A DNA stretch of 64,000 nt from Escherichia coli (GTDB lineage Bacteria; Pseudomonadota; Gammaproteobacteria; Enterobacterales; Enterobacteriaceae), in assembly GCF_965641715.1 (NCBI RefSeq), contig NZ_OZ282453.1. The stretch is one strand, 5' to 3'. The position numbers were made by a program, and so were the translations under genes. Below the pieces are notes generated by a model, which searched no databases, was not told the origin of the DNA, and saw nothing but the letters and a program-made list of their open reading frames with translations. Numbering within the stretch: position 1 is the first letter of the stretch; every line of letters starts with the position of its first letter. Below are positions 935 through 24,690 of this stretch, piece after piece.

Positions 935-2083
935 TTACACGTGAGCAACGGGTTTCGGCGTATGACCGGCGTTGCGAAGCAGCATCAGCAAATAGATAAA
1001 CGATACGCTGGCGATCATGATAAACAATAAATTATCGGAGAAATTCTGCATTAGCATAGCGGTAAATGACGGGCCAAGCAGACTTCCCACGGTATAGCTC
1101 AACAGTAAGGCCTGGTTCATCGCCACCAGTTGATGATGTTCAACTTTCTCGCAAGCCCAGGCCATCGCCACCGGATATAGCGTAAAGCCAGCGGCACCGA
1201 GGATGAATAACGCTGGGGCCATCGCCGCCTGGCTAAGCATCGCGATACTGCCGAGAATGACGACAAAAACCTGAACACGCAACACCAGCAGTCGACCAAA
1301 CTTATCCGCCAGACGTCCGATCGGCCATTGTCCGAGGATACCCGCACTGACCAGTACCGCCATCCAGAAACCAATGCTGGCATTGCTCACCCCTTTGTGA
1401 TTGAGGTACAACGGCATCAGGCCATATAGAGATCCCAGAACGATTCCTGAGATAATGCAGCCATTCACGCCAAGCCGCGCCTGACGGAGTTTTAGCATTG
1501 ACGTAATTGACGTCGAATCATGGTTTTCAGTCTGCTGATTCAGGACACGCGTAAACAACAGCGGTAAGATCCCTGCCAACGTCAAACCTGTAACCCACGG
1601 CAATACGCTCATCAGCTCGGTTGAGACTTTGCTGACCAGTAACTGGCCTAAAAACGTTCCCACGTAATAAACCATCATATACGCAGCAAGCAAACGCCCA
1701 CGGTTACGTGACGTCCCACTGCACATCAGCGCGCTCTCAACGACTACCCAAATCATGGCACAGCCGACGCCCGCGACAAAACGCCACGCCAACCAGCTCC
1801 AGAAACCAATCATCAGGCCAAGGCCGGCACAGCCAGCGGCAAAAATGAAGGAGGCCAGATAATAGCTGCGGTTAAAGCCAATGCGTTTAATGACATACCC
1901 TGTCAGCAATGTACCGACAAGGTTGCCGGTAAAATAGGATGAGCTGACAACGCCTACCTGCCATGTGGACATGTGTTCCTGGGCGAGCCAAAGCGGCACG
2001 AGTGTATTTAACACCGCGATCGCCAGAGTCAACAAAAGCAGGCCAGACAGCAAAAGCATGACAGGCCGGGTATACGTGGACAT
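935..2083 (-). CDS. ycaD: MFS transporter YcaD
   Basis: 382-aa ORF, hydrophobic with multiple TM segments; sequence matches the YcaD I recall; synteny. Confidence 0.9.
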
Positions 2084-2397
2084 GAATTAAAACCGTGAGG
2101 AAGTTCAAATTTCATGCGCATCATGCCACCGCCAAAAACATTGTCAATGGGTGAAAATACGCGCATATCGCAGCGGTGGTATTATCGATTTATATTACTC
2201 ATTCATAACGCTAATACTGAAGAGATGATTAATCTCATCTGGTTGTTTTTATTGATCTAACACAAATTTCATACGCTTCGTTCAGTCGAAAAATTTCATG
2301 GTCACAGCAAACTCATATTTCCCGTCTATGCTTTCAGAGCAATGCATCGCGTCTGACCGATTTCAGACGTACCACTGACTCTCGAAAGGAGAAGAGG

Positions 2398-3024
2398 ATG
2401 ACCAAACCGTATGTTCGTCTTGATAAAAATGATGCTGCCGTTTTGCTTGTTGATCACCAGGCTGGTTTACTTTCCCTTGTACGGGATATCGAACCCGATA
2501 AGTTTAAAAATAACGTGCTGGCGCTGGGTGACCTGGCTAAGTATTTCAACTTACCAACTATTCTTACCACCAGTTTTGAAACCGGTCCTAACGGCCCATT
2601 AGTTCCAGAACTGAAAGCACAATTCCCCGATGCACCTTACATTGCTCGCCCGGGCAATATTAACGCCTGGGATAACGAAGATTTTGTAAAAGCAGTCAAA
2701 GCGACAGGTAAAAAACAGTTAATTATTGCCGGTGTGGTAACCGAAGTTTGCGTGGCATTCCCGGCGCTTTCAGCCATTGAAGAAGGGTTTGATGTCTTCG
2801 TTGTGACTGACGCGTCAGGGACCTTTAATGAAATTACCCGGCATTCGGCATGGGATCGCATGTCGCAAGCAGGTGCGCAATTGATGACATGGTTCGGCGT
2901 GGCTTGCGAGCTGCACCGTGACTGGCGTAATGATATTGAAGGACTGGCGACGTTGTTCTCTAACCATATTCCTGATTATCGTAATTTGATGACCAGTTAT
3001 GACACGTTAACGAAGCAGAAATAA
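2398..3024 (+). CDS. ycaC: Isochorismatase-family hydrolase YcaC
   Basis: 208-aa ORF starting MTKPYVRLDKNDAAVLLVDHQ; cysteine-hydrolase fold family; synteny. Confidence 0.9.
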   Translation: MTKPYVRLDKNDAAVLLVDHQAGLLSLVRDIEPDKFKNNVLALGDLAKYFNLPTILTTSFETGPNGPLVPELKAQFPDAPYIARPGNINAWDNEDFVKAVKATGKKQLIIAGVVTEVCVAFPALSAIEEGFDVFVVTDASGTFNEITRHSAWDRMSQAGAQLMTWFGVACELHRDWRNDIEGLATLFSNHIPDYRNLMTSYDTLTKQK

Positions 3025-3029
3025 AAGAG

Positions 3030-3055
3030 AACCGGGGCCGAAACCCCGGTTGTTA
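3030..3055. terminator. Hairpin between convergent ycaC and dmsC
   Basis: Perfect stem aaccgggg / ccccggtt with a 6-nt loop; no strong T-run, so it may act bidirectionally or only as a stabiliser. Confidence 0.45.
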
Positions 3056-3059
3056 CTGA

Positions 3060-3923
3060 TTAGCTTGCGACGGCCATCCCCACGGTCATATGCAAACCAT
3101 AGAATACGCCGCGACCGATTAATTCCCCTGCCAGAAGCAGAATGAATGAGACGGATAGTAGCGGAACCGCAGGCTGATAACCTTTTAGCTGTGGTGCAAT
3201 CCACAAGCACAGGGCAACGGCCAAAAGCACGATCCGCCAGGACATCAGCGCACCATAGTCCGGCACCAGCGCTGCAGCCTGCTGCACAGAACTATGAATA
3301 GTTGCCAGCTCTGTGCCCTGCATCACTGACATCACGCCACTCACCACCAGTGCCAGTACAGAAATGGCTGGCAGCAGACGCATCGCCCAGCCATCGACGC
3401 CAGCCAGACTCAGCAACAGGTAACCCAGTAACGGGCCGCCCATGAACATCGTCAGGAAGAAGCCCATCGGCGTCCAGATGCTGTACCAGGTCGGAACGGT
3501 ATCAATGCTGTTATAGACACGCACCATCATCCAGACAAAGACGACGCCAAGAACCATCGTCACCACCAGCCATAGCGTACGCAATGCCGGTGACAGCTTT
3601 TTCAGCATTGCCAGCAACCAGCCGATGCCACCTACAGCAAAAAAGATCGAACCGCTGGCGATTTCGTTACTGAGTGCTGAAGCCCCTACCCGGTTGAGCG
3701 AGTTAAAGGCGCGCATCGGTGAACCAAGATGGAGCATAGAGGCGATAAAGCCAATGCCCATCAGCACCCATAAGCCAAACATGCAGGCGATAACACGCTG
3801 CTGGGTTTCTGCTCGCAGGTCGCCTTTGAGCAGCGCCAAAGCCAGAACGATAAAACCACCCGCCACACATTGCCCGAAGACCGTGAAGATCATCAGCGGC
3901 CATTCATGCCATCCACTTCCCAT
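3060..3923 (-). CDS. dmsC: DMSO reductase membrane anchor subunit DmsC
   Basis: Start placed at MGSGWHEWPLMIFTVFGQ (287 aa), directly after the dmsB stop; the track ORF has an in-frame upstream extension. Confidence 0.9.
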   Translation of the reverse strand: MGSGWHEWPLMIFTVFGQCVAGGFIVLALALLKGDLRAETQQRVIACMFGLWVLMGIGFIASMLHLGSPMRAFNSLNRVGASALSNEIASGSIFFAVGGIGWLLAMLKKLSPALRTLWLVVTMVLGVVFVWMMVRVYNSIDTVPTWYSIWTPMGFFLTMFMGGPLLGYLLLSLAGVDGWAMRLLPAISVLALVVSGVMSVMQGTELATIHSSVQQAAALVPDYGALMSWRIVLLAVALCLWIAPQLKGYQPAVPLLSVSFILLLAGELIGRGVFYGLHMTVGMAVAS

Positions 3924-8618: not shown

Positions 8619-9962
8619 TTAACGGTAGCGTTTTATGGGGCTATTTTGATCCTGTTCAGCCAGCCAGGCGAGCTTTTCGCCAATCTTGCCTTCAAGGCCC
8701 CTGTTTGTCGGGAAATAATAGCGTGTTTGTGCTATTTCCGGCGGGAAGTAAACCTCACCGGCAGCATAAGCGTTTGCTTCATCATGAGCGTAACGATATT
8801 CCTGCCCGTAGCCCATTTCCTTCATTAATTTCGTCGGCGCATTACGCAAATGAACCGGCACGTCATAATCCGGGCGTTCGCGAGCATCGGCCAGCGCGGC
8901 TTTAAACGCAGTGTAGACAGCGTTGCTTTTTGGCGCGCAGGCCAGGTAAACAATCGCCTGAGCAATGGCGCGTTCACCTTCCGCCGGGCCAACGCGAGTA
9001 AAGCAATCCCAGGCCGCAATTGCCACCTGCATCGCCCGTGGATCGGCATTACCGACGTCTTCAGACGCAATCGCCAGACAGCGACGCGCGACATATAACG
9101 GATCGCCACCAGCGGTAATAATTCGCGCATACCAGTACAGCGCCGCATCGGGTGCGCTACCACGTACCGACTTATGCAGTGCGGAAATCAGATCGTAAAA
9201 GCGATCGCCTTTGTTATCAAAGCGGGCGCTACGTTCACCGGCGATTTCGGTCAATAATTCAGGCTTCAGGACCCGCTTACCGCTATCATCGACTTCGGCC
9301 ATATCCGCCATCATTTCCAGCGTATTTAACGCCCGGCGCGCGTCGCCATTCACCAGTTCTGCAATGGCACGTCGTGTTTCATCTGGCAGAACAATATCCT
9401 GACCACCATAGCCACGGGTTTTGTCTTCCATCGCCTGAGTTAGTACTTGCTCAATATCCTCTGTACTCAGGGATTTCAACAGATAAACACGGGCACGGGA
9501 AAGCAGTGCCGAATTAAGCTCAAACGACGGGTTTTCAGTGGTTGCGCCAATAAAAGTGATGGTGCCGTCTTCAATATGTGGCAGAAATGCATCCTGCTGG
9601 CTTTTGTTGAAACGGTGAACTTCGTCAACAAAAAGAATAGTGCGGCGACCTGCATTGCGGTTTTGCCGGGCGCGCTCGATCGCCTCGCGAATCTCTTTCA
9701 CGCCAGAGGTGACGGCAGAAATACGTTCCACATCAGCGTTCGCATAGCGGGCAATCACTTCAGCGAGGGTTGTTTTGCCGGTACCCGGTGGCCCCCAGAG
9801 GATCATAGAATGCAAATGCCCGGCTTCGATAGCGCGCGGCAGCGGCTTCCCCGCAGCCAGCAAATGTTGCTGGCCGATATACTGTGCTAAATTTTCTGGC
9901 CGCATACGCGCGGCCAGAGGTTGAAAAGTATTATCCGAAAAATCGAGCGACAGATTGCTCAC
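8619..9962 (-). CDS. rarA: Replication-associated recombination protein A (AAA+ ATPase RarA/MgsA)
   Basis: 447 aa; Walker [10 protein letters not shown]; matches RarA. Confidence 0.95.
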
Positions 9963-9972
9963 TCAGGTGCCT

Positions 9973-10584
9973 CTACTTACGTTGATCATCTACCGTGACG
10001 CCTTGCGGCGGGGTGAAGGTAAATTTCGCTGCATCCACAGCCCCATTTTGCTGGGATTTCAGCTGATAACTGCTGCGCTGATCGTCCTGCTCCACCGCGC
10101 TAAACTGATGGATTGTGCCATCACGTCCCACGTTAATGGTGAACTGCTTCAGATTGCCATTGCTGGCTTTCGGCGTCAGGACAAAGTCATCGCCATTCTG
10201 TTTGATATTGTACTGCTGCCAGTCGCTGGACTGGTTGCGGGCAATCAGCATAAACGGCGTATTACCGGTGGCATCTTTCAGCCAGGTTGCCGTAGCTTGC
10301 TCAACGAACGGGTTATAGAACCACAGTGTTTTACCGTCAGAAACCAGAATGCTTTCATCAGGTTGTGTCATATGCCAGTTGAATAAGTTTGGACGTTTCA
10401 CCCACAGATCGCCCTGACCTTCCTGCACCGCCGCGCCGCTACCGTCAGTAACTTTTTGTGTAAAGCTGGCGTGGAAGCTGCTGACTTTATCCAGGCGACT
10501 TTTCAGATCGCTTGCGGCATCAGCCCAAACGCTGCTTGCTACTAAGCTTGAGAGTAATGCACAGGTGATGGCAATTTTTTTCAT
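9973..10584 (-). CDS. lolA: Outer-membrane lipoprotein carrier protein LolA
   Basis: 203 aa from [21 protein letters not shown] (signal peptide); the track ORF begins one Met earlier. Confidence 0.9.
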
Positions 10585-10696
10585 CATTATTCCTCAAATT
10601 ACGTCACTCCCGATCGGGAGTTCCCTCTACTCTCTATTCCAGGCTAATAATCAGCTTGAGGAAAGAAGAAAATACTGAATTTTCAGTTGATAGAGT

Positions 10697-10728
10697 GCCG
10701 GATGCGACGCTACCGCGCCTTATCCGGC
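10697..10728. repeat. REP (repetitive extragenic palindrome) element just downstream of ftsK
   Basis: gccggatgcgacgctaccgcgccttatccggc matches the REP consensus core. Confidence 0.7.
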
Positions 10729-10738
10729 AATGCATTAA

Positions 10739-13700
10739 TTAGTCAAACGGCGGTGGGGCCAGCACTTCACGATTACCGTTGTGCCCCTGTTCGCTGACAA
10801 TCCCCTGCGCTTCCATCTGTTCGATAATACGCGCTGCACGGTTATAACCAATGCGGAACTGACGCTGTACGCCAGAAATTGACGCTTTGCGTTTTTCAGT
10901 GACAAACTGCACCGCCTGATCGAACAACGGATCCAGTTCTTCAGCGCCATCGAAACCACCCGCACCACCTTCGCTTTCGCTGTCGGAGGTGATGCCATCA
11001 ACATACTGTGGGCGACCACGCGCTTTCCAGTCCTGCACCACGGCATGAACTTCCTGATCGCGAACAAAAGCACCATGGACACGTACCGGCAACGTGGAGT
11101 TCGGCCCAGAGTAGAGCATATCCCCCATACCCAGCAGTGATTCCGCGCCAGCCTGATCAAGAATGGTACGTGAGTCAATCTTACTGGATACGGTAAAGGC
11201 GATACGGGTCGGAATATTCGCTTTAATCAGACCAGTAATAACATCAACCGATGGACGCTGAGTTGCCAGTACGAGGTGGATACCCGCGGCACGGGCTTTT
11301 TGCGCCAGACGTGCTATCAGCTCTTCCACTTTTTTACCTACCGTCATCATCAGGTCGGCAAATTCGTCCACCAACACCACAATGTATGGTTCTTTTTTCA
11401 GCACCGGATGCTGGGCATCCATACTGTCACCCGGCTTCCAGTACGGGTCTGGAATCGGACGCATCATGCGATCGGCTTCAGCAATTTTTTCGTTATAACC
11501 CGCCAGATTACGCACACCCAGCGCAGACATCAGTTTATACCGACGCTCCATCTCGTTAACACACCAGCGCAGCGCGTTGGCGGCATCTTTCATATCAGTA
11601 ACGACTTCCGTTAACAGGTGCGGAATGCCTTCATAAACCGAAAGCTCCAGCATTTTCGGGTCGATCATGATGAAACGCACATCTTCTGGCTGTGCTTTAT
11701 AAAGCATGCTCAGGATCATCGCGTTCACACCGACAGATTTACCGGAACCGGTAGTCCCCGCAACCAACAAGTGCGGCATTTTCGCCAGATCGGCAACCAC
11801 CGGCTCACCGGCGATATCTTTACCCAGCACCACGGTTAATGGCGATGGATTATCGCGGAATTTGGCGTTATCCAATACTTCGCGCAGATAAACGGTTTGT
11901 CGTTTTTTATTCGGTAACTCCAGACCTACATAGGGTTTGCCAGGAATAACTTCAACGACACGCACCGCCACCGTCGAAAGTGAACGGGCAAGGTCCCGTG
12001 ACAAGTTAGAAATGCGCGCCGCTTTTACGCCAGGAGCCAGGTTAAGTTCAAAGCGAGTGATAACCGGCCCCGGAGAGTAATTGACGACATCGGCTTTAAT
12101 ACGGAAATCAGCCAGACGCGCTTCCACCAGGCGAGCCATTTGTTCAAGCGCAAAGGTATCTACCGGCTCCACTTCGCTCGGCGGCGGTGTCAGCAAATCC
12201 AGAGAAGGCAGCGGCGTCGTCGGTTTATGCAACGGACGGCTGTCGCCATTACGCATCAACAGCGGATGAAGCAGGGTATCCTGCGGCTGTGGCGCAACTG
12301 GCTGTTGTGGCTGCTGATACTGCGGCTGCGGTGCAACCGGTTGTTGCGGCTGTTGATACTGCGGCTGCGGCGCAACTGGTTGTTGCGGCTGCTGATATTG
12401 CTGCTGTGGCGCAACCGGTTGTTGCGGCTGCTGTACAGGTTCAACAATTGGCGTAAACAGCGGTTCGTGTGGACCATCATCCAGCAACGCTTTCATTGGT
12501 GAAAATTCAAAATCATCCAGCGTGAACGGATTCGCCCCAGCCGGTTGTTCGCAGGAATAACGTTGTTGTTGAGTTTGCGCAAACTGACGAGCCAGTTCAG
12601 CCTCTGCCGCAGCATCTGCATCTTCTGCGTTTACGGGCACATCATGTTGATACTGTTCGCCATAGCGTTGCTGCTGTGTCTGGGCGAACTGACGTGCCAG
12701 TTCATCCTGCTGCATCGCATCGATTTCATCATCGTTGTACTGATCGCCAGAATCGTACTGATTGCGCTGGGCTTCACGGGCTTTTTCTTCCGCCGCACGC
12801 TGTGAGGGCAGCTTAATACCGTAAGACGCCAATTCACGACGAGTTGGCACGCGGATACGTTTCGGTCGTGGCAACTGCGGGCCAATCCCCTCTTTGACCT
12901 GCGGACGCGGTCCACCGCTATTTGCCAGACTGAAGACTGGCGCGGCAACGGTTGCGGCAGCCCCCGTCGCCAGTGTCGCTTTTTTCACGCCAGATGCCAG
13001 CGGAGAAACAGCGGCAGCGGCTTCTACTGGAGGTACTGCTGCAACAGAAGGTGCTTTCAGCGAAGATTTGATCGGTTCTGGTTCTTTAACCGGTTCTGGA
13101 ATCGGTTGATACCAGGCCGCAAGTTGTTCACGTTCACGGGCTCGCTTCTCTTCCACTTCTTCAAAGTAGTAAAGCGGCGGACGCGCGGGTTTTGTCTCTT
13201 CTACAACGGGTTCAGGCTCCACAACAGGCTGCTGTTCAACAGGTTGCGGCTGTTGGTACAACGGCTCCTGAGCGGCTGGCTGCTGATAAGTTTGCTCAGT
13301 CTGGTATGTAGACTGTGGAGCAAAAGTGGATTGCTGCTCTTCGGCTTGCCAGGCGTTACCTGCCACCGGTTGTTCTGGCGCAGGGGCATAATACGGCTGT
13401 TGCGCAGGCTGTTCCGGCGCAGTTGCGTAATACGGTTGCTGAACAGGTTGTTCCGCCGCAGGAGCGTAGTAAGGTTGTTGCGCAGGTTGTTCAGCTGCAG
13501 GTGCATAATACGGCTGCTGCGGCTGTACTGGTTGTTGCAGCGGCTCATTATATTGCACTGCAGGCTGCGCATATTGTGACTGCTGTGGGTAACCTTCCGG
13601 TGCAGGAGCAATAACCGGCTCTCCCGTTTGTGGACCCGGTACAGGCTGCCAGGCTACTGTAGGTTGCGAAGGTGGAACATCAACAGAGGCAACAGGCGGC

Positions 13701-14728
13701 GTCTGAGTCACAGGTTCAACCGGCGCAGCCCAGCTTTGTGTCGCCGTGGTAGCAGCAGCTGCTACAGCGACAGGTTCGGTAATTGGCGCACCGTTTAATA
13801 ATGGATCGTATTCGTCATATTCTGGCTGCGTTGCACGATTGCCCGAAAATAGGACGTCGTCCGGGTCGGTAGCCACACCGCGTGCAGTGTAGGTAATCTC
13901 TTCGTCATCATCCATCCGCTTACCGGAGAACAACGCAGCGTCTGTTTGCCGCCCCATCGGATTAATGAATTTTTCCGCCAACCGTTTACGACGCGCTAGC
14001 GCGCCGCGAAGAATACGGGCACGGCGTGATTCATGCTGTTTGCCGTGATTTTCATCTTCATACTCTTCGTCGTCTTCATACTCATCTTCATCGACCCAGG
14101 TATCATCGCGACGGGTACGATTACTGGCGAAGGTGAGAATGTTTAAAATCCAGCCGCCGAGTTTTTCAGCAATGGTCACCCATGACCAACCGGTGAACAA
14201 CGTCAGGCCCGCTGCCCAAACGCAGAGCAGCGCAATAGTTCCCCCGCTACTGTGTAGCAGTGGTTGTAGCGTAGTGCTTAGTAAGCTGCCAATGACGCCA
14301 CCGGAGGCAAAATACCAGATATCGTCAGCGTTGATTGCCGCCAGACCACAGGAGGTAAGGATGAGCGCCAAAACGCCAATGATGCGTAGCGAAACGGCAA
14401 AATAATCAATGTATTCGTCGCTGGACTGATGACGCCAGGCAAACCAACAACCGCCGACAATAATGACGGGAATGGTGTAAGCCATCACGCCAAAAATAAA
14501 GAACAGCGTATCTGCCAACCACGCACCGGGCATCCCACCTAAATTATGGATAGGTTCATGCCAGGCCGTTTGCGACCAGCTGGGGTCCGAAGGGTTAAAG
14601 CTTAGTAAGGCAGCCATCAACCAGACGGCAAACAGGACAATAAGGATCAGCAACGCCTCCAGAAGGCGGCGGCCGCTACTTAACTTTGTCAATGTGACTT
14701 CTTTGTCTTCAGTGTATTCCTGGCTCAA
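10739..14728 (-). CDS. ftsK: DNA translocase FtsK
   Basis: 1329 aa; N-terminal TM domain, long Pro/Gln-rich linker with tandem repeats, C-terminal RecA-like motor (GTTGSGKS). Confidence 0.95.
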
Positions 14729-14862
14729 GAAAGGCTCTCCAGGTTACAGGCTTTTCCTGCCCGATGCTAAAACGGACAACAGTACCAGGTTACCCCAGTA
14801 CTGTTGCTGTATGGATTAACAGGAGTGTAATCAAAATACGCCGATTTTGCACCTGTTCCGTG

Positions 14863-15357
14863 TTAGCGCGTCTTAATAACCAGACGATTACTCTGCTTGA
14901 CTTCTTCCATAACAACGTATGTCCGTGTGTCATTGACGCCAGGCAGACGCAGCAGGGTTTCCCCCAGCAACTTACGGTAAGCTGACATATCCGGCACGCG
15001 TGTTTTCAACAGGTAGTCGAAATCACCAGATACTAAATGACACTCCTGAATTTCTTCAAGTTTTTGTACAGCGGTATTGAATTGTTCAAACACATCCGGT
15101 GCGCCACGATTCAGAGTAATCTCAACGAATACCAGAAGTGATGCATCCAGATAATGGGGGTTAAGCAGCGCCGTATAGCCCTGAATAAACCCTTGTCTTT
15201 CCAGCCGACGCACACGCTCAAGGCACGGCGTTGGGGAAAGTCCCACACGTTTAGAAAGCTCGACGTTAGAAATACGCCCATCCTTTTGCAACTCATTAAG
15301 AATGTTACGATCGATACGGTCGAGATCTTTGCCAGGGCGCTTCTTGCTATCTACCAT
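14863..15357 (-). CDS. lrp: Leucine-responsive regulatory protein Lrp
   Basis: 164 aa from MVDSKKRPGKDLDRIDRNILNELQKDG; AsnC/Lrp family; the track ORF has an upstream extension. Confidence 0.95.
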   Translation of the reverse strand: MVDSKKRPGKDLDRIDRNILNELQKDGRISNVELSKRVGLSPTPCLERVRRLERQGFIQGYTALLNPHYLDASLLVFVEITLNRGAPDVFEQFNTAVQKLEEIQECHLVSGDFDYLLKTRVPDMSAYRKLLGETLLRLPGVNDTRTYVVMEEVKQSNRLVIKTR

Positions 15358-15784
15358 TATTATTGTCTCTCTGTATTCCTTCCCTACTCCTGTCTGACCC
15401 TGAAACATCACTGTTCAGAGTCGCTACCCGTCACGATAGACCGAAATCATGAAGATTCACGGCGCGCAATGCCTGGGTCTACGGTGAGAAGACCGTTGCC
15501 TTGTGGCAGCTATCGACATCACGAATGGCGTCTGTCCACGCCATACGTAGATTTCACTAGCACGGTAAACATGGTATTTACATGCATGGTTATGCGCATA
15601 TAAGAATACTGTTTTTTTTCTTCCTCGAATGTTTTCGCAAAACACCAGGGGATTGTCAAAGCAAAACATCGATTTTTAGTACAACATGCCAGATATTCAT
15701 TAACAGGGGCGTTTATTCATCATTTAATCGGCTTATAAAGCGGGAAATTTAAGTAGCAGAGGTGATAATGACGGGAGAATTTGA

Positions 15785-16867
<1,083 letters not shown>

Positions 16868-16893
16868 TTTTACAAATCAGTAACAAAAGTAAA

Positions 16894-16933
16894 GAAGGCG
16901 ACACCATGCGACTATGGGTCGCCTTTATTTTTT
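16894..16933 (+). terminator. Rho-independent terminator of trxB
   Basis: Hairpin aggcgacaccatgcgactatgggtcgcct followed by ttatttttt. Confidence 0.65.
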
Positions 16934-16989
16934 CCCCGTTGTAACATTGCTCTGCAAATAATTCTGATAACTCACCTGCTAAGCGTGCA

Positions 16990-18756
16990 ATGAATAAATC
17001 TCGTCAAAAAGAGTTAACCCGCTGGTTAAAACAGCAAAGCGTCATCTCCCAACGTTGGCTGAATATTTCTCGTCTGCTGGGCTTTGTAAGCGGCATATTG
17101 ATCATTGCCCAGGCATGGTTCATGGCGCGAATTCTGCAACATATGATTATGGAGAATATTCCCCGTGAAGCCCTGCTGCTTCCCTTTACGTTACTGGTTC
17201 TGACCTTTGTACTGCGCGCATGGGTGGTCTGGTTACGCGAACGGGTGGGTTATCACGCCGGGCAGCATATCCGCTTTGCCATCCGCCGTCAGGTTCTCGA
17301 CCGTCTGCAACAAGCAGGGCCAGCGTGGATTCAGGGTAAACCTGCGGGGAGCTGGGCGACGCTGGTACTCGAGCAAATTGACGATATGCATGATTACTAT
17401 GCACGCTATCTGCCGCAAATGGCGCTGGCAGTGTCGGTGCCGTTGCTGATTGTGGTGGCGATCTTCCCCTCTAACTGGGCTGCGGCGCTCATTCTGCTGG
17501 GCACAGCACCGCTAATTCCGTTGTTTATGGCGCTGGTTGGGATGGGGGCTGCCGATGCTAACCGACGTAACTTTCTCGCTCTTGCTCGCTTAAGTGGGCA
17601 TTTCCTCGATCGCCTGCGCGGCATGGAAACATTGCGTATTTTTGGTCGTGGTGAAGCTGAAATTGAAAGTATTCGTTCTGCTTCGGAAGATTTCCGCCAA
17701 CGGACAATGGAAGTGCTACGGCTGGCGTTTTTATCCTCCGGCATTCTCGAATTTTTTACCTCGCTGTCAATTGCTCTGGTGGCGGTCTACTTTGGTTTTT
17801 CCTATCTCGGCGAGCTGGATTTTGGTCACTACGATACTGGCGTGACGCTGGCTGCGGGTTTTCTGGCCCTGATCCTTGCGCCAGAGTTTTTCCAGCCATT
17901 ACGCGATCTCGGTACGTTTTATCATGCTAAAGCCCAGGCTGTTGGTGCAGCTGACAGTCTGAAAACGTTTATGGAAACCCCGCTCGCCCATCCGCAGCGC
18001 GGTGAGACGGAATTAGCATTGACCGATCCGCTGACCATTGAGGCCGAGGATCTGTTTATCACGTCGCCGGAAGGTAAAACGCTGGCCGGACCGCTGAACT
18101 TTACTTTGCCAGCAGGCCAACGTGCAGTGTTGGTTGGTCGCAGCGGTTCAGGTAAAAGCTCACTGCTGAACGCGCTTTCTGGTTTTCTCTCATATCAGGG
18201 ATCATTACGAATCAACGGGATAGAATTACGCGATTTATCACCAGAATCATGGCGTAAACATCTCTCCTGGGTTGGACAAAACCCACAATTACCGGCAGCA
18301 ACATTACGGGATAACGTACTACTGGCGCGACCTGATGCCAGCGAACAAGAATTACAAGCAGCGCTGGATAACGCCTGGGTCAGCGAGTTTCTACCGCTCC
18401 TGCCACAAGGCGTTGATACGCCTGTTGGCGACCAGGCTGCCCGCCTTTCCGTGGGGCAGGCGCAGCGCGTGGCGGTGGCCCGTGCGTTACTAAATCCCTG
18501 TTCGCTATTACTGTTGGATGAACCCGCTGCCAGCCTTGATGCTCACAGTGAACAGCGCGTAATGGAGGCGCTGAATGCCGCCTCTCTGCGCCAGACAACG
18601 TTAATGGTCACCCACCAGTTAGAAGATCTTGCTGACTGGGATGTCATTTGGGTTATGCAGGATGGCCGGATTATTGAGCAAGGACGTTACGCGGAATTAA
18701 GTGTGGCTGGTGGCCCATTCGCCACATTACTGGCCCATCGTCAGGAGGAGATTTAA
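16990..18756 (+). CDS. cydD: Cysteine/glutathione ABC exporter CydD (cytochrome bd assembly)
   Basis: 588 aa; TM domain plus ABC ATPase (GRSGSGKSS). Confidence 0.95.
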   Translation: MNKSRQKELTRWLKQQSVISQRWLNISRLLGFVSGILIIAQAWFMARILQHMIMENIPREALLLPFTLLVLTFVLRAWVVWLRERVGYHAGQHIRFAIRRQVLDRLQQAGPAWIQGKPAGSWATLVLEQIDDMHDYYARYLPQMALAVSVPLLIVVAIFPSNWAAALILLGTAPLIPLFMALVGMGAADANRRNFLALARLSGHFLDRLRGMETLRIFGRGEAEIESIRSASEDFRQRTMEVLRLAFLSSGILEFFTSLSIALVAVYFGFSYLGELDFGHYDTGVTLAAGFLALILAPEFFQPLRDLGTFYHAKAQAVGAADSLKTFMETPLAHPQRGETELALTDPLTIEAEDLFITSPEGKTLAGPLNFTLPAGQRAVLVGRSGSGKSSLLNALSGFLSYQGSLRINGIELRDLSPESWRKHLSWVGQNPQLPAATLRDNVLLARPDASEQELQAALDNAWVSEFLPLLPQGVDTPVGDQAARLSVGQAQRVAVARALLNPCSLLLLDEPAASLDAHSEQRVMEALNAASLRQTTLMVTHQLEDLADWDVIWVMQDGRIIEQGRYAELSVAGGPFATLLAHRQEEI

Positions 18757-20478
18757 ATGCGCGCTTTGCTACCCTATCTGGCACTGTATAAACGTCATAA
18801 ATGGATGTTAAGTCTTGGTATTGTGCTGGCAATTGTGACGCTGCTCGCCAGTATCGGTCTGTTGACACTTTCCGGCTGGTTCCTCTCGGCCTCAGCGGTT
18901 GCGGGGGTTGCCGGACTGTACAGCTTCAACTATATGCTACCCGCTGCGGGCGTGCGTGGTGCAGCAATCACCCGTACTGCCGGGCGTTATTTTGAACGTC
19001 TGGTAAGTCACGACGCGACTTTCCGCGTGTTGCAGCATCTGCGCATTTACACCTTCAGCAAATTGTTGCCCCTCTCCCCTGCCGGACTGGCGCGCTATCG
19101 TCAGGGCGAATTGCTCAACCGCGTGGTGGCGGATGTTGATACGCTCGATCATCTTTACCTGCGCGTTATCTCGCCGCTGGTGGGCGCTTTTGTGGTGATT
19201 ATGGTGGTGACAATCGGGTTAAGTTTCCTTGATTTCACCCTCGCCTTTACGCTGGGCGGCATTATGTTACTGACGCTTTTCCTGATGCCACCGCTGTTTT
19301 ATCGTGCGGGAAAAAGCACCGGGCAAAATCTGACTCATCTTCGCGGACAGTATCGCCAACAACTGACGGCCTGGCTGCAAGGGCAAGCTGAGCTGACCAT
19401 TTTTGGTGCCAGCGATCGTTATCGCACGCAACTAGAGAATACAGAAATTCAATGGCTGGAAGCGCAACGCCGTCAATCTGAACTGACCGCATTGTCGCAA
19501 GCGATAATGCTGCTCATTGGCGCGTTAGCGGTGATCCTGATGCTGTGGATGGCGTCTGGCGGCGTTGGCGGCAATGCTCAACCCGGCGCGTTAATTGCCC
19601 TGTTTGTCTTCTGCGCGTTAGCCGCGTTTGAAGCACTGGCACCAGTAACGGGTGCATTTCAGCATCTGGGGCAAGTCATTGCCTCTGCCGTTCGGATCAC
19701 TGATTTAACGGATCAAAAACCGGAGGTCACCTTCCCTGATACCCAAACTCGTGTTGCCGATCGCGTTTCGCTGACGTTACGGGATGTTCAGTTCACTTAT
19801 CCGGAGCAATCTCAACAGGCACTTAAAGGGATTTCTCTTCAGATAAACGCCGGGGAACATATAGCGATTCTCGGGCGAACCGGATGCGGCAAATCAACAC
19901 TGTTACAACTGCTGACCCGCGCATGGGACCCGCAACAGGGCGAGATTTTGCTTAACGATAGCCCCATAGCCAGCCTGAATGAAGCGGCTCTACGACAGAC
20001 CATCAGCGTTGTTCCTCAGCGAGTGCATCTGTTTAGCGCCACGCTGCGTGATAATCTGTTACTCGCCTCGCCTGGCAGTAGTGATGAGGCTCTGTCGGAG
20101 ATCTTGCGTCGCGTTGGTCTGGAGAAGCTGCTCGAGGATGCAGGTCTCAACAGTTGGTTGGGTGAAGGTGGACGCCAGCTCTCCGGTGGTGAACTGCGCC
20201 GTCTGGCTATCGCCCGTGCGCTGTTACATGATGCGCCGCTGGTATTGCTGGATGAACCTACAGAAGGCTTAGATGCCACAACCGAAAGTCAGATCCTTGA
20301 ATTGCTTGCAGAAATGATGCATGAGAAAACGGTGTTAATGGTCACCCATCGACTTCGCGGACTCTCTCGTTTCCAACAAATAATAGTGATGGACAACGGG
20401 CAAATTATTGAGCAAGGTACTCACGCAGAACTGCTTGCCAGACAGGGGCGTTATTACCAGTTTAAGCAGGGTTTGTAA
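18757..20478 (+). CDS. cydC: Cysteine/glutathione ABC exporter CydC
   Basis: 573 aa; start codon abuts the cydD stop; ABC motifs (GRTGCGKST, LSGGE). Confidence 0.95.
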   Translation: MRALLPYLALYKRHKWMLSLGIVLAIVTLLASIGLLTLSGWFLSASAVAGVAGLYSFNYMLPAAGVRGAAITRTAGRYFERLVSHDATFRVLQHLRIYTFSKLLPLSPAGLARYRQGELLNRVVADVDTLDHLYLRVISPLVGAFVVIMVVTIGLSFLDFTLAFTLGGIMLLTLFLMPPLFYRAGKSTGQNLTHLRGQYRQQLTAWLQGQAELTIFGASDRYRTQLENTEIQWLEAQRRQSELTALSQAIMLLIGALAVILMLWMASGGVGGNAQPGALIALFVFCALAAFEALAPVTGAFQHLGQVIASAVRITDLTDQKPEVTFPDTQTRVADRVSLTLRDVQFTYPEQSQQALKGISLQINAGEHIAILGRTGCGKSTLLQLLTRAWDPQQGEILLNDSPIASLNEAALRQTISVVPQRVHLFSATLRDNLLLASPGSSDEALSEILRRVGLEKLLEDAGLNSWLGEGGRQLSGGELRRLAIARALLHDAPLVLLDEPTEGLDATTESQILELLAEMMHEKTVLMVTHRLRGLSRFQQIIVMDNGQIIEQGTHAELLARQGRYYQFKQGL

Positions 20479-20519
20479 GCTATTATTGAACGATCCGACT
20501 TGCGTGGAGTTTTGCGGTC

Positions 20520-21224
20520 ATGCGCCTGGTTCAGCTTTCTCGCCATTCAATAGCCTTCCCTTCCCCGGAAGGCGCATTACGTGAGCCTAACGGCCTGCTG
20601 GCACTTGGGGGCGATCTTAGCCCTGCGCGCCTGTTAATGGCTTACCAGCGTGGTATTTTTCCGTGGTTTTCTCCAGGCGACCCCATCCTCTGGTGGTCGC
20701 CCGATCCCCGTGCGGTGCTATGGCCAGAATCACTGCATATCAGCCGTAGTATGAAGCGATTTCATAAACGCTCGCCCTATCGTGTCACGATGAATTACGC
20801 TTTTGGTCAGGTCATTGAAGGCTGTGCCAGCGATCGCGAAGAAGGAACCTGGATCACACGTGGCGTGGTCGAAGCCTACCATCGCCTTCACGAACTCGGT
20901 CATGCCCACTCCATTGAAGTCTGGCGTGAAGATGAGCTTGTCGGCGGTATGTACGGCGTGGCCCAGGGAACGCTATTTTGTGGCGAGTCCATGTTCAGCC
21001 GGATGGAAAATGCGTCTAAAACGGCGCTTCTGGTATTCTGTGAGGAATTTATCGGTCATGGCGGTAAGCTTATCGACTGCCAGGTCCTTAACGATCACAC
21101 AGCATCGCTTGGTGCCTGCGAAATTCCCCGCCGGGATTACCTTAATTATCTCAATCAAATGCGCCTCGGACGATTGCCGAATAATTTCTGGGTACCACGA
21201 TGCTTGTTTTCACCACAAGAATGA
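20520..21224 (+). CDS. aat: Leucyl/phenylalanyl-tRNA--protein transferase
   Basis: 234 aa, [39 protein letters not shown]...; synteny. Confidence 0.9.
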
Positions 21225-21505
21225 ATGTTTTCGGCACATTTCTCCCCAGAGTGTTATAATTGCGGTCGCAGAGTTGGTTACGCTCATTACCCCGCTGCCG
21301 ATAAGGAATTTTTCGCGTCAGGTAACGCCCATCGTTTATCTCACCGCTCCCTTATACGTTGCGCTTTTGGTGCGGCTTAGCCGTGTGTTTTCGGAGTAAT
21401 GTGCCGAACCTGTTTGTTGCGATTTAGCGCGCAAATCTTTACTTATTTACAGAACTTCGGCATTATCTTGCCGGTTCAAATTACGGTAGTGATACCCCAG
21501 AGGAT

Positions 21506-21727
<222 letters not shown>

Positions 21728-21766
21728 TTGTTTTACCGCCTGATGGGCGAAGAGAAAGAACGAGTA

Positions 21767-21799
21767 AAAGGTCGGTTTAACCGGCCTTTTTATTTTGTG
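21767..21799 (+). terminator. Rho-independent terminator of infA
   Basis: Stem aaaggtcgg / ccggccttt with a following U-run. Confidence 0.6.
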
Positions 21800-21908
21800 A
21801 TATGTATGAAGTACTTTGGAAGTATAAGTCCATAACTTGTCTCGATGTAGATATACTGCACAACTTGTTTACAGTATGAGCAAACAATAATTATCATTAA
21901 AATTCTTC

Positions 21909-21937
21909 TTGACCGTTTTACTCCAACTCCCTATAGT
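21909..21937 (+). promoter_or_regulatory. Candidate sigma-70 promoter for serW
   Basis: ttgacc, 17-bp spacer, tatagt, about 43 bp upstream of the mature tRNA 5' end. Confidence 0.55.
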
Positions 21938-21980
21938 AGCGCCCCGTTGCCACCCATGAGGTTTGGCAGCAAAACAATTT

Positions 21981-22068
21981 GGTGAGGTGTCCGAGTGGCT
22001 GAAGGAGCACGCCTGGAAAGTGTGTATACGGCAACGTATCGGGGGTTCGAATCCCCCCCTCACCGCCA
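21981..22068 (+). tRNA. serW: tRNA-Ser (anticodon GGA), class II tRNA with long variable arm
   Basis: ggtgaggtgtccgagtggctgaagg...ggttcgaatccccccctcaccgcca; T-loop GGTTCGAATCC; CCA end; anticodon loop ctGGAaa. Confidence 0.9.
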
Positions 22069-22078
22069 TATTTAAAGA

Positions 22079-22109
22079 AGAGCTCGTACGAAAGTGCGAG
22101 CTTTTTTTT
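22079..22109 (+). terminator. Rho-independent terminator after serW
   Basis: agctcgtacgaaagtgcgagct followed by tttttttt. Confidence 0.65.
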
Positions 22110-22123
22110 CGCATTTTATCTGT

Positions 22124-22200
22124 CTGTACGGCAGTGAACATGGTGGGCGGGTGGAGTATGTTACCTGTGAATTTCTAAGCTGCCTGTACGGCAGTGAACA
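22124..22200. repeat. Two copies of a 17-bp direct repeat (ctgtacggcagtgaaca), 60 bp apart
   Basis: Exact 17-mer at 22124-22140 and 22184-22200, extending to about 20 bp with one mismatch. Confidence 0.6.
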
Positions 22201-22350
22201 CAAATACTACACGTTTAGCCCGTTGTTAATAAAGCAAAACCATCTCATTTTCCTGCTACCACCCTTTTTTTATCCTTACCTTACCGCAGCACTAATTATC
22301 AACAACTTACCATCATCATCAAAAAAAGGGTCTGAACCTCCTCCACCCCA

Positions 22351-22388
22351 TAAATAAAAAGTCCGTAACCTCTTTCGAGATTACGGAC
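22351..22388 (-). terminator. Rho-independent terminator of clpA
   Basis: Hairpin gtccgtaacc...ggttacggac pattern (gtccgtaa / ttacggac) followed on the minus strand by a T-rich run. Confidence 0.6.
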
Positions 22389-22413
22389 TTCACCAACCTA
22401 CCTGACAATCAGA

Positions 22414-24690
22414 TTAATGCGCTGCTTCCGCCTTGTGCTTTTGTGCACTCTGAAATCCGTAAGTCAGCTCATTTTTCTCTTTATCCAGCGCGACGGTGAC
22501 CTGACCGCCGTCCACCAGCGAACCAAACAGCAGTTCGTTGGCAAGCGGTTTTTTCAGGTTGTCCTGGATGACACGCGCCATCGGACGTGCGCCCATTGCC
22601 CGGTCGTAACCTTTCTCGGCCAGCCAGTTGCGCGCTTCCTGGCTCACTTCCAGAGAAACACCTTTCTGATCCAGCTGAACCTGCAACTCGACGATGAATT
22701 TATCCACCACCTGATGGATCACGTCAGTTGACAGATGATCGAACCAGATAATGTTGTCGAGACGGTTACGGAATTCCGGTGTAAAGATCTTCTTGATCTC
22801 TTCCATCGCATCGGTGCTGTTATCCTGGTGGATAAGACCAATGGATTTGCGCTCAGTTTCCCGTACCCCGGCGTTGGTGGTCATCACCAGCACCACGTTA
22901 CGGAAGTCCGCTTTGCGTCCGTTGTTATCGGTCAGCGTACCGTTGTCCATCACCTGCAACAGAATATTGAACACGTCCGGGTGCGCTTTCTCGATTTCGT
23001 CCAGCAGCAGCACCGCATGTGGATGCTTGATGACCGCATCAGTCAGCAAACCGCCCTGATCAAAACCAACGTATCCCGGAGGCGCACCAATAAGACGGCT
23101 GACGGTATGGCGTTCCATATACTCGGACATATCAAAGCGCAGAAGCTCAATGCCCAAAGCTTTCGAAAGCTGTACCGTCACCTCTGTTTTCCCGACCCCG
23201 GTAGGGCCGGCAAACAGGAACGAACCAACCGGTTTATGTTCGTGACCTAAACCTGCACGCGCTATCTTAATGGCTTCAGTCAGCGCCTCAATGGCTTTAT
23301 CCTGACCGAAGACCAGCATTTTCAGGCGATCGCCGAGGTTTTTCAGGGTATCGCGGTCACTCTGAGAAACACTCTTCTCTGGAATGCGTGCAATACGGGC
23401 CACCACGGACTCAATATCCGCCACATTTACGGTTTTCTTGCGTTTGCTTACCGGCATCAGGCGTGCGCGAGCGCCCGCTTCGTCGATAACATCAATCGCT
23501 TTATCCGGCAGATGACGATCGTTAATGTATTTCACCGCCAGCTCTACCGCCGCACGCACCGCTTTTGCGGTATAACGCACGTCGTGGTGCGCTTCATACT
23601 TCGGTTTCAGGCCATTGATGATTTGAACAGTTTCTTCGATCGACGGTTCAGTAATATCAATTTTCTGGAAGCGACGCGCCAGAGCACGGTCTTTCTCGAA
23701 AATGTTGCTGAACTCCTGATAGGTTGTCGAACCAATTACGCGAATTTTACCGCTGGAGAGCAACGGTTTGATTAGGTTAGCCGCATCGACCTGACCACCA
23801 GACGCTGCACCCGCACCGATAATGGTGTGGATCTCATCAATAAACAGGATGCTGTTAGTGTCCTGCTCCAGCTGCTTGAGCAACGCTTTAAAACGTTTTT
23901 CAAAGTCGCCGCGATATTTTGTGCCCGCTAACAGAGAACCGATATCGAGAGAGTAAATTGTACAGTCAGCCATCACTTCCGGCACATCGCCCTGAACAAT
24001 TCGCCAGGCAAGACCTTCCGCAATCGCAGTTTTACCAACACCAGATTCCCCCACCAGCAGCGGGTTGTTTTTACGGCGACGGCAGAGAACCTGAATAGCA
24101 CGCTCAAGCTCCTTCTCACGACCAATCAGTGGGTCGATTCCGCCCACGCGCGCAAGCTGATTCAGGTTCGTCGTGAAATTCTCCATACGTTCCTCCCCAC
24201 CAGCTTGTTCTTCGCTGTTTGGCTGGCTGCCAGGATCAGAAGACTGTGTCGGCTCGTCTTTACGCGTGCCATGAGAGATAAAGTTCACCACATCGAGACG
24301 GCTGACTTCATGTTTACGCAACAGATATGCCGCCTGCGACTCCTGTTCGCTAAAGATAGCGACCAGAACGTTTGCACCGGTAACCTCATTGCGACCGGAG
24401 GACTGGACATGGAAGACCGCACGTTGCAGTACACGCTGAAAACTCAGCGTCGGCTGTGTGTCGCGCTCCTCTTCACTGGCAGGCAGAACGGGTGTGGTTT
24501 GTTCAATAAAGGCTTCCAGTTCCTGACGGAGCGCAACCAAATCCACAGAACACGCTTCCAGCGCCTCCCGGGCAGATGGGTTACTGAGCAGCGCCAGTAA
24601 CAAGTGCTCGACGGTCATAAACTCATGACGGTGCTCGCGCGCTCTGGCGAAAGCCATATTTAAACTGAGTTCCAGTTCTTGATTGAGCAT
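22414..24690 (-). CDS. clpA: ATP-dependent Clp protease ATP-binding subunit ClpA
   Basis: 758 aa from [24 protein letters not shown]; two AAA modules ([16 protein letters not shown]); good SD upstream of this start. Confidence 0.95.

Follow-up and report, generated by a model that had tools for sequence, protein, structure and literature searches.

That FtsK carries a proline- and glutamine-rich linker of variable length is textbook material, and the ftsK gene in the stretch of 64,000 nucleotides of Escherichia coli DNA that we analysed (hereafter the window) has conspicuous repeats in this part of the protein. The locus therefore raises the question of what these repeats are, how their number changes, and whether they serve FtsK as a specific functional element or mainly as a spacer. 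The linker is the tether between the septal membrane anchor and the hexameric DNA-translocase motor, and it is described as unstructured, PQ-rich and of different length in different species (PMC5357621). The gene is found in the context lrp-ftsK-lolA-rarA, and the ORFs that flank it in the window correspond to the lrp and lolA genes annotated by RefSeq where E. coli loci are collinear:

10739..14728, minus strand: ftsK coding sequence, 1329 aa, TTG start (ORF list, Pfam, RefSeq)
9973-10587, minus strand: lolA, downstream neighbour of ftsK
from 14863, minus strand: lrp, upstream neighbour of ftsK

The encoded protein is exactly WP_335267407.1, "DNA translocase FtsK [Escherichia coli]", and has the composition of an E. 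coli-type FtsK: the septal anchor with four transmembrane segments (FtsK_4TM, PF13491, aa 20-191, E 5e-42), the alpha/beta RecA-like motor (FtsK_alpha, PF17854, aa 840-940; FtsK_SpoIIIE, PF01580, aa 948-1161, E 8.5e-88) with the Walker A-type motif GTTGSGKS in the translation, and the C-terminal, KOPS-reading gamma domain (FtsK_gamma, PF09397, aa 1264-1324). The Pfam scan gave no domain for aa 192-839. Since the Pfam domains are all located outside this interval, the two blocks of tandem repeats are both part of the linker, and so is a third repeat between them:

13364..13519, minus strand: block A (VNTR ms06), 4 x 39 bp = 4 x 13 aa, aa 404-455 (TRF, unit table); units at 13481-13519, 13442-13480, 13403-13441 and 13364-13402
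12557..12703, minus strand: repeat C, two copies of a 14-aa motif, at 12662-12703 and 12557-12598
12278..12433, minus strand: block B (VNTR CVN001 = ms07), 4 x 39 bp = 4 x 13 aa, aa 766-817 (TRF, unit table); units at 12395-12433, 12356-12394, 12317-12355 and 12278-12316

The initial annotation had reported two in-frame tandem-repeat blocks in ftsK, with about four copies of roughly 39 bp near 12290-12440 and a second block near 13370-13560. Two exact arrays of 4 x 13 aa with a period of 39 are indeed present; the copies near 12290-12440 correspond to block B, and the second block is block A, but here the repeat already ends at 13519. As ftsK is encoded on the minus strand, the block that had been named first is the C-proximal one, and it ends 22 residues ahead of the FtsK alpha domain. 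Tandem Repeats Finder (TRF) detected block B with a period of 39 (12281-12433, 3.9 copies, 88% matches, score 236) and block A with the same period (13368-13521, 3.9 copies, 77% matches, score 175), with a period of 78 as the alternative for block A (score 206). The description of the repeats as near-perfect is appropriate for the peptides but not for the DNA, with an identity between the units of 74-82% in block A and 82-92% in block B. Proline and glutamine together make up 48% of block A and 77% of block B.

As a control for chance, the matches at offset 39 were counted in a frame of 117 nt and compared to shuffled sequence. Block B gave 103/117 and block A 89/117 matches, whereas the codon-shuffled linker gave 55.6 +/- 2.0 with a maximum of 63 (200 shuffles), and shuffling within the blocks reached at most 72 (B) and 60 (A) matches (2000 shuffles). 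Both arrays are far beyond chance, and with head-to-tail units of 39 bp found twice by TRF and match numbers above the shuffle maxima they are minisatellites, for which a unit of at least 10 bp is required. The synonymous divergence between the units within the window is near-saturated (0.47-0.74); almost all differences are synonymous (pN/pS about 0.07-0.08), and overall pN/pS between the units is 0.07-0.13. This suggests that the unit peptide is under purifying selection, whereas the length of the linker seems to be only loosely constrained.

The initial annotation considered the repeats a known feature of the FtsK linker, and this was confirmed not only by the literature on the PQ-rich linker but also by published primers for multiple-locus VNTR analysis (MLVA). 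All six primers for ms06, CVN001 and ms07 have single perfect matches in the window that bracket blocks A and B:

13251..13629: ms06 in-silico amplicon, 379 bp; primers at 13251-13270 (plus) and 13610-13629 (minus), from PMC4553163
12180..12546: CVN001 in-silico amplicon, 367 bp; primers at 12180-12199 (plus) and 12528-12546 (minus), from PMC8143711
12185..12693: ms07 in-silico amplicon, 509 bp; primers at 12185-12204 (plus) and 12674-12693 (minus), from PMC4553163

Blocks A and B are the published typing loci ms06 and ms07/CVN001; their placement in ftsK follows from the primers as reproduced in later papers (PMC8143711, PMC4553163), which also give a unit of 39 bp for CVN001 (PMC8143711) and for ms06 and ms07 (PMC4553163). 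CVN001 of the generic E. coli MLVA (Lindstedt et al. 2007) and ms07 of the Shigella/E. coli MLVA (Gorge et al. 2008) are one and the same block B without any structural difference, and the ms07 forward primer falls within the first ELARQF motif. For ms06, which belongs to the panel of Gorge et al. 2008, the primers and the 39-bp unit identify the same locus as block A, and the published alleles 2, 3 and 4 (PMC4553163) equal the unit numbers in the E. coli genomes studied here. For block B, alleles 4-8 have been found for CVN001 in Swedish ESBL E. coli and alleles 2 and 4-8 for ms07 in S. sonnei (PMC4553163), comparable to the 1-12 units observed in our analysis. The CVN001 allele formula, (size-250)/39 (PMC8143711), scores the window as 3, one below the true unit number of 4 and also lower than any of the alleles 4-8 in the Swedish survey. 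As both blocks are published typing loci, we are dealing with ordinary length polymorphism that was already known.

The unit numbers were compared at the DNA level in 26 E. coli ftsK alleles (24 fetched alleles, strain 25403 and the window) and at the protein level in the best 120 matches of a full-length FtsK search, all of them E. coli/Shigella clusters, 118 of which were parsed. Block A has 2, 3 or 4 units in the genomic alleles and 5 in P0112, one of the 120 listed protein clusters, which widens the published ms06 range; block B has 1 to 9 units in the genomic alleles and up to 12 among the 120 listed clusters. The proposed use as a length-polymorphism marker, to be checked by comparing copy numbers among alleles, is thus well founded (A 2-5, B 1-12 units): the unit number varies between strains, and the flanks are collinear. 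Blocks A and B explain nearly all of the length variation of E. coli FtsK (1264 to 1433 aa), and rare changes of repeat C the rest: the remainder outside the repeats is 1225 aa in 25 of the 26 genomic alleles (1226 in MINF_1A, which has a different start) and in 114 of the 118 parsed clusters, the other four being three with extra repeat C copies and one parsing artefact (P0078). In most length changes complete units of 13 aa are gained or lost, and in a few a remnant of 5 aa is left; the frame is preserved in each of the 26 genomic alleles and each of the 120 listed protein clusters, including those with a truncated unit of 15 nt.

In a systematic sample of 60 out of 5426 complete genomes, block A measured 381, 342 or 303 bp, with about one third of the sample for each span. 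The block B region is collinear with that of the window in only 77 of the 5426 genomes, and BLAST spans with a 9-unit query gave 9, 7, 6, 6.38, 4.38, 4 and 1 units in the interpretable rows, with about half of the 60 sampled genomes joined across the array; these spans gave no reliable frequency table, and block B frequencies were therefore taken from the published CVN001 data. The K-12 protein (A2+B6) and that of the window (A4+B4) both have 1329 aa, which is a coincidence. A compensation between the two blocks has to be rejected, as there is no correlation between their unit numbers (Spearman 0.10, p 0.66, 21 distinct alleles) and FtsK lengths range from 1264 to 1433 aa. At the lower end of this range is the urine isolate 25403 with a single B unit and an FtsK of 1264 aa.

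How do the units change in number? We consider it very likely that the two blocks are in-frame 39-bp minisatellites (VNTRs) of the PQ-rich FtsK linker that are altered by misalignment of units and tolerated as a flexible spacer. During replication, units may misalign at short microhomologies and thus change the copy number by slippage; unequal sister-strand exchange between units would be an alternative route. The linker would tolerate such changes because the repeat segments may serve above all as a flexible spacer, the composition of which is constrained; the single B unit of strain 25403 and the exchange of a linker indel between S. Enteritidis strains (PMC6137255, see below) speak for such tolerance. 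We infer this mechanism from its end products. In A alleles with three units, the last unit is a chimera that joins nt 1-17 of unit 3 to nt 18-39 of unit 4. K-12 and O157 carry the A allele with two units, which corresponds to the loss of 78 bp between two occurrences of the 11-nt sequence CCTGCGCAACA, and the truncated QQPQY unit corresponds to the loss of 24 nt between occurrences of the 9-nt sequence GCAGCCGCA. Moreover, strain 2002-3211 has a two-unit duplication (b10 b11 b10 b11), FY26 has duplicated one unit, and CUVM53 has lost two units relative to K-12. Block B of the window equals the last four units of the O157:H7/O145-type arrays, and it most likely originated from such an array when the first 3-4 units were deleted in register.

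The hybrid units and the junction microhomologies of 9-11 nt probably reflect within-array misalignment by replication slippage. Efficient RecA-dependent exchange in E. coli reportedly needs roughly 23-27 bp (Shen and Huang 1986); the longest exact tracts between the units are shorter, 10-14 nt in block A and 17-20 nt in block B, and this favours RecA-independent slippage. Some of these patterns could also stem from RecA-dependent unequal exchange, or from homologous recombination that brings in complete alleles from other strains. The slipped-strand mispairing put forward in the initial annotation is therefore plausible and in agreement with the junction sequences, but its proof goes beyond sequence data alone. 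In contrast, the high instability that it implied is overstated. Within lineages the unit maps are identical, as in K-12, KMi006 and SL124 and in three isolates that share one map, and the MLVA literature reports CVN001 to be nearly fixed within ST131. The same map in unrelated isolates of one lineage indicates a low rate of change, and "hot spot" would be an overstatement.

Repeats of this kind may be collapsed or mis-joined in short-read assemblies, and the four-copy arrays of the window might be suspected to be such artefacts. The block B allele of the window is absent from the 5426 complete E. coli genomes, with 97.3% for the best full-length match, it constitutes the 3' part of the longer O157/O145 arrays, and unit 1 of those arrays and the first unit of the window share their first 23 nt, so that a shortcut in the assembly graph is conceivable. 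Yet the identical 1329-aa protein is represented by two GenBank protein accessions and on three contigs, the largest of 5,159,857 bp, and this makes an artefact very unlikely. Moreover, the reading frame is intact, and short B alleles are present in other complete genomes (CUVM53 B4, NC101 B3, strain 25403 B1). None of the complete E. coli genomes is more than 99.5% identical to the window over the 10 kb beside ftsK, which had pointed to Shigella; this was rejected, as the exact FtsK protein is recorded for E. coli, and the window represents an E. coli lineage that is missing from the complete-genome set. The repeats also give rise to long ORFs in other frames and on the opposite strand, as had been predicted:

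12140-12502, plus strand: antisense ORF over block B, 120 aa, repetitive translation, spurious
12187-12456, plus strand: second ORF over block B, 89 aa, spurious
13106-13579, plus strand: ORF over block A, 157 aa, spurious
13315-13614, plus strand: ORF over block A, 99 aa, spurious
13201-13611, minus strand, other frame: ORF over block A, 136 aa, spurious

That these ORFs of 89-157 aa, which lie over one or the other block, are real overlapping genes, or that a CRISPR-like array causes the periodic signal, has a negligible probability. In the ftsK frame the units differ by synonymous changes, and these scramble the other frames; with selection acting on the ftsK frame, the alternative frames are not conserved. 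Their translations are repetitive and of low complexity, and stop-free antisense frames are to be expected from codons rich in CAG, CCG and GCG. As for CRISPR, the units abut head to tail without spacers inside the conserved ftsK coding sequence, the genes nearby are lrp, lolA and trxB, and no Rfam family was found in 9000-17000 of the window.

Another alternative to the flexible spacer is that the repeats are multivalent functional modules, i. e. that the tyrosine-bearing PQ units weakly bind divisome partners or drive FtsK clustering, so that the copy number would tune FtsK assembly or the time of septation. The polymorphism would then be adaptive and not near-neutral. The low pN/pS between the units despite near-saturated synonymous divergence would agree with this idea, and so would the identical 13-aa unit in E. 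coli and Salmonella and the related PQ units with a terminal Tyr (11-14 aa or longer) that a degenerate DNA pattern scan with one genome per species detected in many Enterobacteriaceae at the corresponding position. In addition, interactions of linker segments with FtsQ, FtsL, FtsI and FtsZ have been reported (Dubarry 2010, as cited in PMC5357621). Strong purifying selection and the same unit in Salmonella imply that the sequence is no featureless spacer, and a specific function of the unit is possible. However, natural isolates span 1 to 12 B units, the numbers of A and B units do not compensate each other, and Klebsiella, Cedecea, Buttiauxella and Trabulsiella lack an array at the corresponding position. 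In Salmonella Enteritidis, a strain pair differs by a linker indel of 84 bp (28 aa) that was attributed by the authors to the loss of two out of nine tandem repeats, and swapping this two-unit indel between the strains left survival in egg white, the sole assay tried, unchanged (PMC6137255). We therefore regard adaptive tuning by such modules as unlikely.

A related idea includes repeat C, the third in-frame repeat, situated between blocks A and B, that the initial annotation had overlooked. Its copies are offset by 35 aa (105 bp) with an acidic spacer between them and differ by 8 nt, all synonymous. Of 91 Enterobacteriaceae species, 89 have exactly two copies of the motif ELARQFAxxQQxRY, and rare E. 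coli alleles (P0005, P0008, P0002) have extra copies (3 or 4). For the conserved inter-block segment (aa 606-765), AlphaFold2 predicts helices over both copies (pLDDT 70s to low 80s) but no compact fold (pTM 0.21), and a PDB sequence search with this segment gave a single weak match, 8fje_A "E8" (E 0.0019), which we judged uninformative. There is no Pfam model for the motif, and a full-text literature search found no mention of it. It is conceivable, if improbable, that the linker is more than a passive tether, that its periodic PQ units with their Tyr residues are multivalent "stickers" which, jointly with the conserved twin helices, set FtsK self-association or divisome binding, and that the A2-A5/B1-B12 alleles tune septal assembly or the coupling of chromosome clearance and constriction.

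The repeats resemble several known systems. The Salmonella VNTR SENTR2/STTR7 is also a 39-bp repeat and is explicitly assigned to ftsK in the literature, in another genus and with a typically higher copy number (9.3 copies in S. Enteritidis), and S. enterica arizonae has the same 13-aa unit as E. coli at the same position, directly upstream of HPLLMRNGD. The linker of the window shares with FtsK-L as described previously (Bigot 2004, Dubarry 2010, Massey 2006) the variable length, the richness in Pro and Gln and the position between the 4TM domain and the motor; the reviews on FtsK-L deal with variation between species, whereas the copy series and unit maps within a species come from typing papers and the present analysis. 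Contingency loci, e. g. of Neisseria and Haemophilus, are likewise intragenic tandem repeats that change by strand slippage. In contrast to these, the ftsK units have diverged (74-92% identity), the alleles are stable within clones, and there is no switch: the 39-bp unit is a multiple of three, so that changes in ftsK never shift the frame or turn the gene off, and the frame was kept in all alleles examined.

Taken together, both arrays are already known as long-used MLVA loci of E. coli and Shigella, as is the ftsK repeat of Salmonella, and they carry little weight as a discovery. For genome scans, masking of both blocks is advisable because of the long false ORFs and periodic signals. The same length of FtsK does not mean the same allele, as illustrated by K-12 (2+6) and the window (4+4) and by two 4-unit block B alleles that differ in their unit maps; size-based MLVA is thus subject to homoplasy, which is resolved by the sequence at the unit level. 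If the units and helices did act as stickers, the twin-helix motif would be an undescribed interaction element. The natural series of 1-12 B units provides a ready test of the linker length that FtsK needs.

The interval under study lies wholly inside one reading frame. The Pfam domains of its product, together with the gene order lrp-ftsK-lolA annotated in collinear RefSeq loci, identify the gene as ftsK and place the interval in its linker; aa 192-839 of this FtsK received no domain assignment from Pfam. According to a review (PMC5357621), the linker is unstructured and PQ-rich, its length varies between species, and parts of it bind FtsQ, L, I and Z. The features of the window's protein are:

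10739-14728, minus strand: ftsK reading frame, 1329 aa
aa 20-191: FtsK_4TM (Pfam)
13364-13519, minus strand, aa 404-455: block A, the N-proximal array, exactly four 13-aa units in the ftsK frame
12557-12703, minus strand, aa 676-724: twin ELARQFAxxQQxRY motif (copies at 12662-12703 and 12557-12598)
12278-12433, minus strand, aa 766-817: block B, the C-proximal array, exactly four 13-aa units in the ftsK frame
aa 840-940: FtsK_alpha (Pfam)
aa 948-1161: FtsK_SpoIIIE (Pfam)
aa 1264-1324: FtsK_gamma (Pfam)

Just past the membrane domain, a period-6 in-frame repeat (14051-14092, aa ~213-226; TTCATC on the plus strand, seven copies, 66% matches) encodes a 14-aa acidic tract. The top LexA-box-like site of the window, TGCTGTATGGATTAACAG, lies between lrp and ftsK (14805-14822), some 80 nt ahead of the start of ftsK, and differs by one mismatch from TACTGTAT-N7-CAG; it fits dinH, the SOS-inducible promoter known for ftsK. 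Across the window, LexA-box-like matches were not above chance (14 versus 9.8 expected). The annotation of the complete genome of E. coli 2014C-4135 (NZ_CP027310.1) lists lrp, the gene directly upstream of ftsK, as a pseudogene with a frameshift.

Both arrays are real and far above chance. Tandem Repeats Finder detected a period of 39 at 12281-12433 (3.9 copies, 88% matches, score 236) and at 13368-13521 (3.9 copies, 77% matches, score 175). At an offset of 39, block A had 89 and block B 103 matches per 117 nt, compared to 55.6 +/- 2.0 (maximum 63) in codon-shuffled linkers and maxima of 60 (A) and 72 (B) in shuffles that kept each block's own codons. The two in-frame blocks of the initial annotation are thus present, with four units each, block B ending 22 residues ahead of the alpha domain; the long spurious reading frames foreseen there were also found: five ORFs (89-157 aa) whose translations are repetitive overlap the blocks in other frames. 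The repeats are indeed tandem, but the description of their DNA as near-perfect did not hold: unit-to-unit identity is 82-92% in block B and 74-82% in block A, and the longest exact tracts common to units measure 17-20 nt and 10-14 nt, respectively. The differences between units are overwhelmingly synonymous, with 40 synonymous versus 11 non-synonymous in block A (pN/pS 0.08, synonymous divergence 0.74) and 23 versus 6 in block B (pN/pS 0.07, synonymous divergence 0.47). At the sequence level, this marks the window's units as old duplicates that have diverged while selection has preserved their peptide, and not as fresh duplications.

The proposed use of the repeats as a length-polymorphism marker is borne out by the comparison of E. 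coli alleles. Of 5426 complete E. coli genomes, 5425 gave a match to a 381-nt query spanning block A; among 60 of them sampled systematically, the matching region spanned 381, 342 or 303 bp (4, 3 or 2 units) in about one third each. Only 77 genomes were collinear with the window's four-unit block B allele. Among 26 genomic alleles (25 fetched genomes and the window), block A had 2, 3 or 4 units and block B 1 to 9, some with a truncated 5-aa QQPQY unit, while FtsK outside the blocks measured 1225 aa in 25 of them; the exception, MINF_1A, has 1226 aa owing to a different start. The best 120 E. coli/Shigella FtsK protein clusters extended the range to 5 units in block A, 12 in block B and 1433 aa in total. 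The shortest FtsK found, of 1264 aa, has two A units and one B unit and comes from the human urine isolate 25403 (NZ_CP195555.1). K-12 (two A and six B units) and the window (four and four) both encode 1329 aa; since the two unit numbers show no correlation among 21 distinct alleles (Spearman 0.10, p 0.66), this equality is a coincidence.

The unit maps of the alleles suggest how copy number changes. In three-unit block A alleles, the last unit is a chimera that joins nt 1-17 from unit 3 to nt 18-39 from unit 4, and we infer that these alleles arose by an in-register 39-bp deletion. The two-unit allele of K-12 and O157 would have lost 78 bp by deletion between two occurrences of the 11-nt CCTGCGCAACA, and the 15-nt QQPQY unit would have lost 24 nt between two occurrences of the 9-nt GCAGCCGCA inside one unit. 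Gains are visible as a duplicated unit pair in strain 2002-3211 (b10 b11 b10 b11, in our labels for distinct block B units) and as a single duplicated unit in FY26; CUVM53 has the map of K-12 without two internal units. In the window, block B (b1 b2 b3 b4) matches exactly the four units that close the O157:H7 and O145 arrays, and most likely derives from such an array by in-register loss of its first 3-4 units; outside the repeats, the nearest fetched allele is that of O157:H7, with 18 differences over 3678 nt. In E. coli, roughly 23-27 bp of homology are needed for RecA-dependent exchange to be efficient. Since every homology tract is shorter than this, RecA-independent slippage between units would be the more likely route of copy-number change. 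One unit map is common to K-12, KMi006 and SL124 and another to three other isolates. Judged by their sequences, the alleles are stable within lineages, as in a slow minisatellite and not a hypermutable switch. Moreover, a change in unit number can never shift the ftsK frame because the 39-bp unit is a multiple of three.

An assembly artefact would account for the absence of the window's block B allele from all 5426 complete E. coli genomes, where the best full-length match reached 97.3%. This origin is unlikely, however, since a database record with exactly this 1329-aa sequence exists for E. coli (WP_335267407.1) and covers three contigs of up to 5.16 Mb. None of the 5426 genomes exceeded 99.5% identity over the 10 kb adjoining ftsK (14800-24800), and the window's lineage appears to have no representative among complete RefSeq E. 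coli genomes. Its FtsK also carries substitutions of its own, such as SCEQPA and FTLDDF versus SGEQPA and FSLDDF in K-12 and others.

As variable repeats, blocks A and B are already known by name, in keeping with the initial annotation, which had called them a known feature of the linker. The published primers of three strain-typing loci (PMC8143711, PMC4553163) each have one single perfect match in the window:

13251-13270 and 13610-13629: ms06 primer sites, flanking block A
12185-12204 and 12674-12693: ms07 primer sites, flanking block B
12180-12199 and 12528-12546: CVN001 primer sites, flanking block B

All three loci are described with a 39-bp unit (PMC8143711, PMC4553163), and ms07 has been equated with CVN001 (PMC4553163). 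The published alleles, 2, 3 and 4 for ms06 and 2 and 4-8 for ms07 in S. sonnei (PMC4553163) as well as 4-8 for CVN001 in Swedish ESBL E. coli, fit the unit numbers seen here; in ST131, CVN001 nearly always has the value 6. Its size formula gives a score one lower than the actual number of units, and the window, with four units, therefore types as CVN001 = 3. The Salmonella locus SENTR2 (= STTR7) is likewise a 39-bp repeat within ftsK, with 9.3 copies (PMC2430564). Two S. Enteritidis strains are told apart by an 84-bp indel in the ftsK linker, and swapping this indel left egg-white survival unchanged (PMC6137255). In E. coli, ftsK is the gene with the most small variable segments, four (Touzain et al. 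2010, PMC2884548).

Between the blocks lies a third in-frame repeat, missing from the initial annotation: a 14-aa motif, ELARQFAxxQQxRY, that occurs twice, 35 aa apart, with an acidic spacer between the copies. The two copies differ by 8 nt, all synonymous. Of 91 Enterobacteriaceae species, 89 have exactly two copies of the motif, with a spacing of 28-59 aa, and rare E. coli alleles (protein clusters P0005, P0008 and P0002) have three or four copies, adding 35 or 70 aa. Despite the supposed lack of conservation in the linker, the stretch between the blocks (~12440-12920, aa ~606-765) is strongly conserved, with 46 invariant columns across 27 diverse species. AlphaFold2, with a 27-sequence alignment, predicted helices over both motifs (pLDDT 70s to low 80s) and no compact fold of the segment (pTM 0.21). 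No Pfam model covers the segment, and a full-text literature search for the motif gave no match.

In contrast to this conserved segment, the arrays in the variable segments of the linker differ between lineages. A degenerate HPLLMRNGD pattern retrieved ftsK from more than 100 Enterobacteriaceae species; its few matches elsewhere (a Lachnospiraceae MAG, Clostridia, Planococcus) are due to chance, since the ORFs in which they lie are short (2-71 aa upstream in frame) and bear no relation to ftsK. The arrays are:

Salmonella, block B position: 13-aa unit identical to that of E. coli
Citrobacter, block B position: 13-aa unit QQPPQPVAPQQHY
Siccibacter, block B position: 12-aa unit, about 10 times in Siccibacter turicensis
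Pseudenterobacter and Kosakonia, block B position: 14-aa unit
Klebsiella, elsewhere in the linker: 24-aa unit, many times
Shimwellia pseudoproteus, elsewhere in the linker: 14-aa QPEPQYQQPVQQYQ, at least 7 times, nearly perfect
Superficieibacter, elsewhere in the linker: 13-aa unit

At the block B position, Klebsiella, Cedecea, Buttiauxella and Trabulsiella have no array. Escherichia albertii retains four QQPYY units in block A, and its block B is degenerate with an 11-residue poly-alanine run (QQQPAAAAAAAAAAAPQPQY...). The arrays of Shimwellia, Klebsiella and Siccibacter are much longer or more perfect than those of E. coli and have another period. Arrays that differ or are missing from genus to genus thus point to lineage-specific fillings of variable segments, and the FtsK linkers of the enterobacteria seem to serve generally as a nursery of PQ minisatellites punctuated by Tyr.
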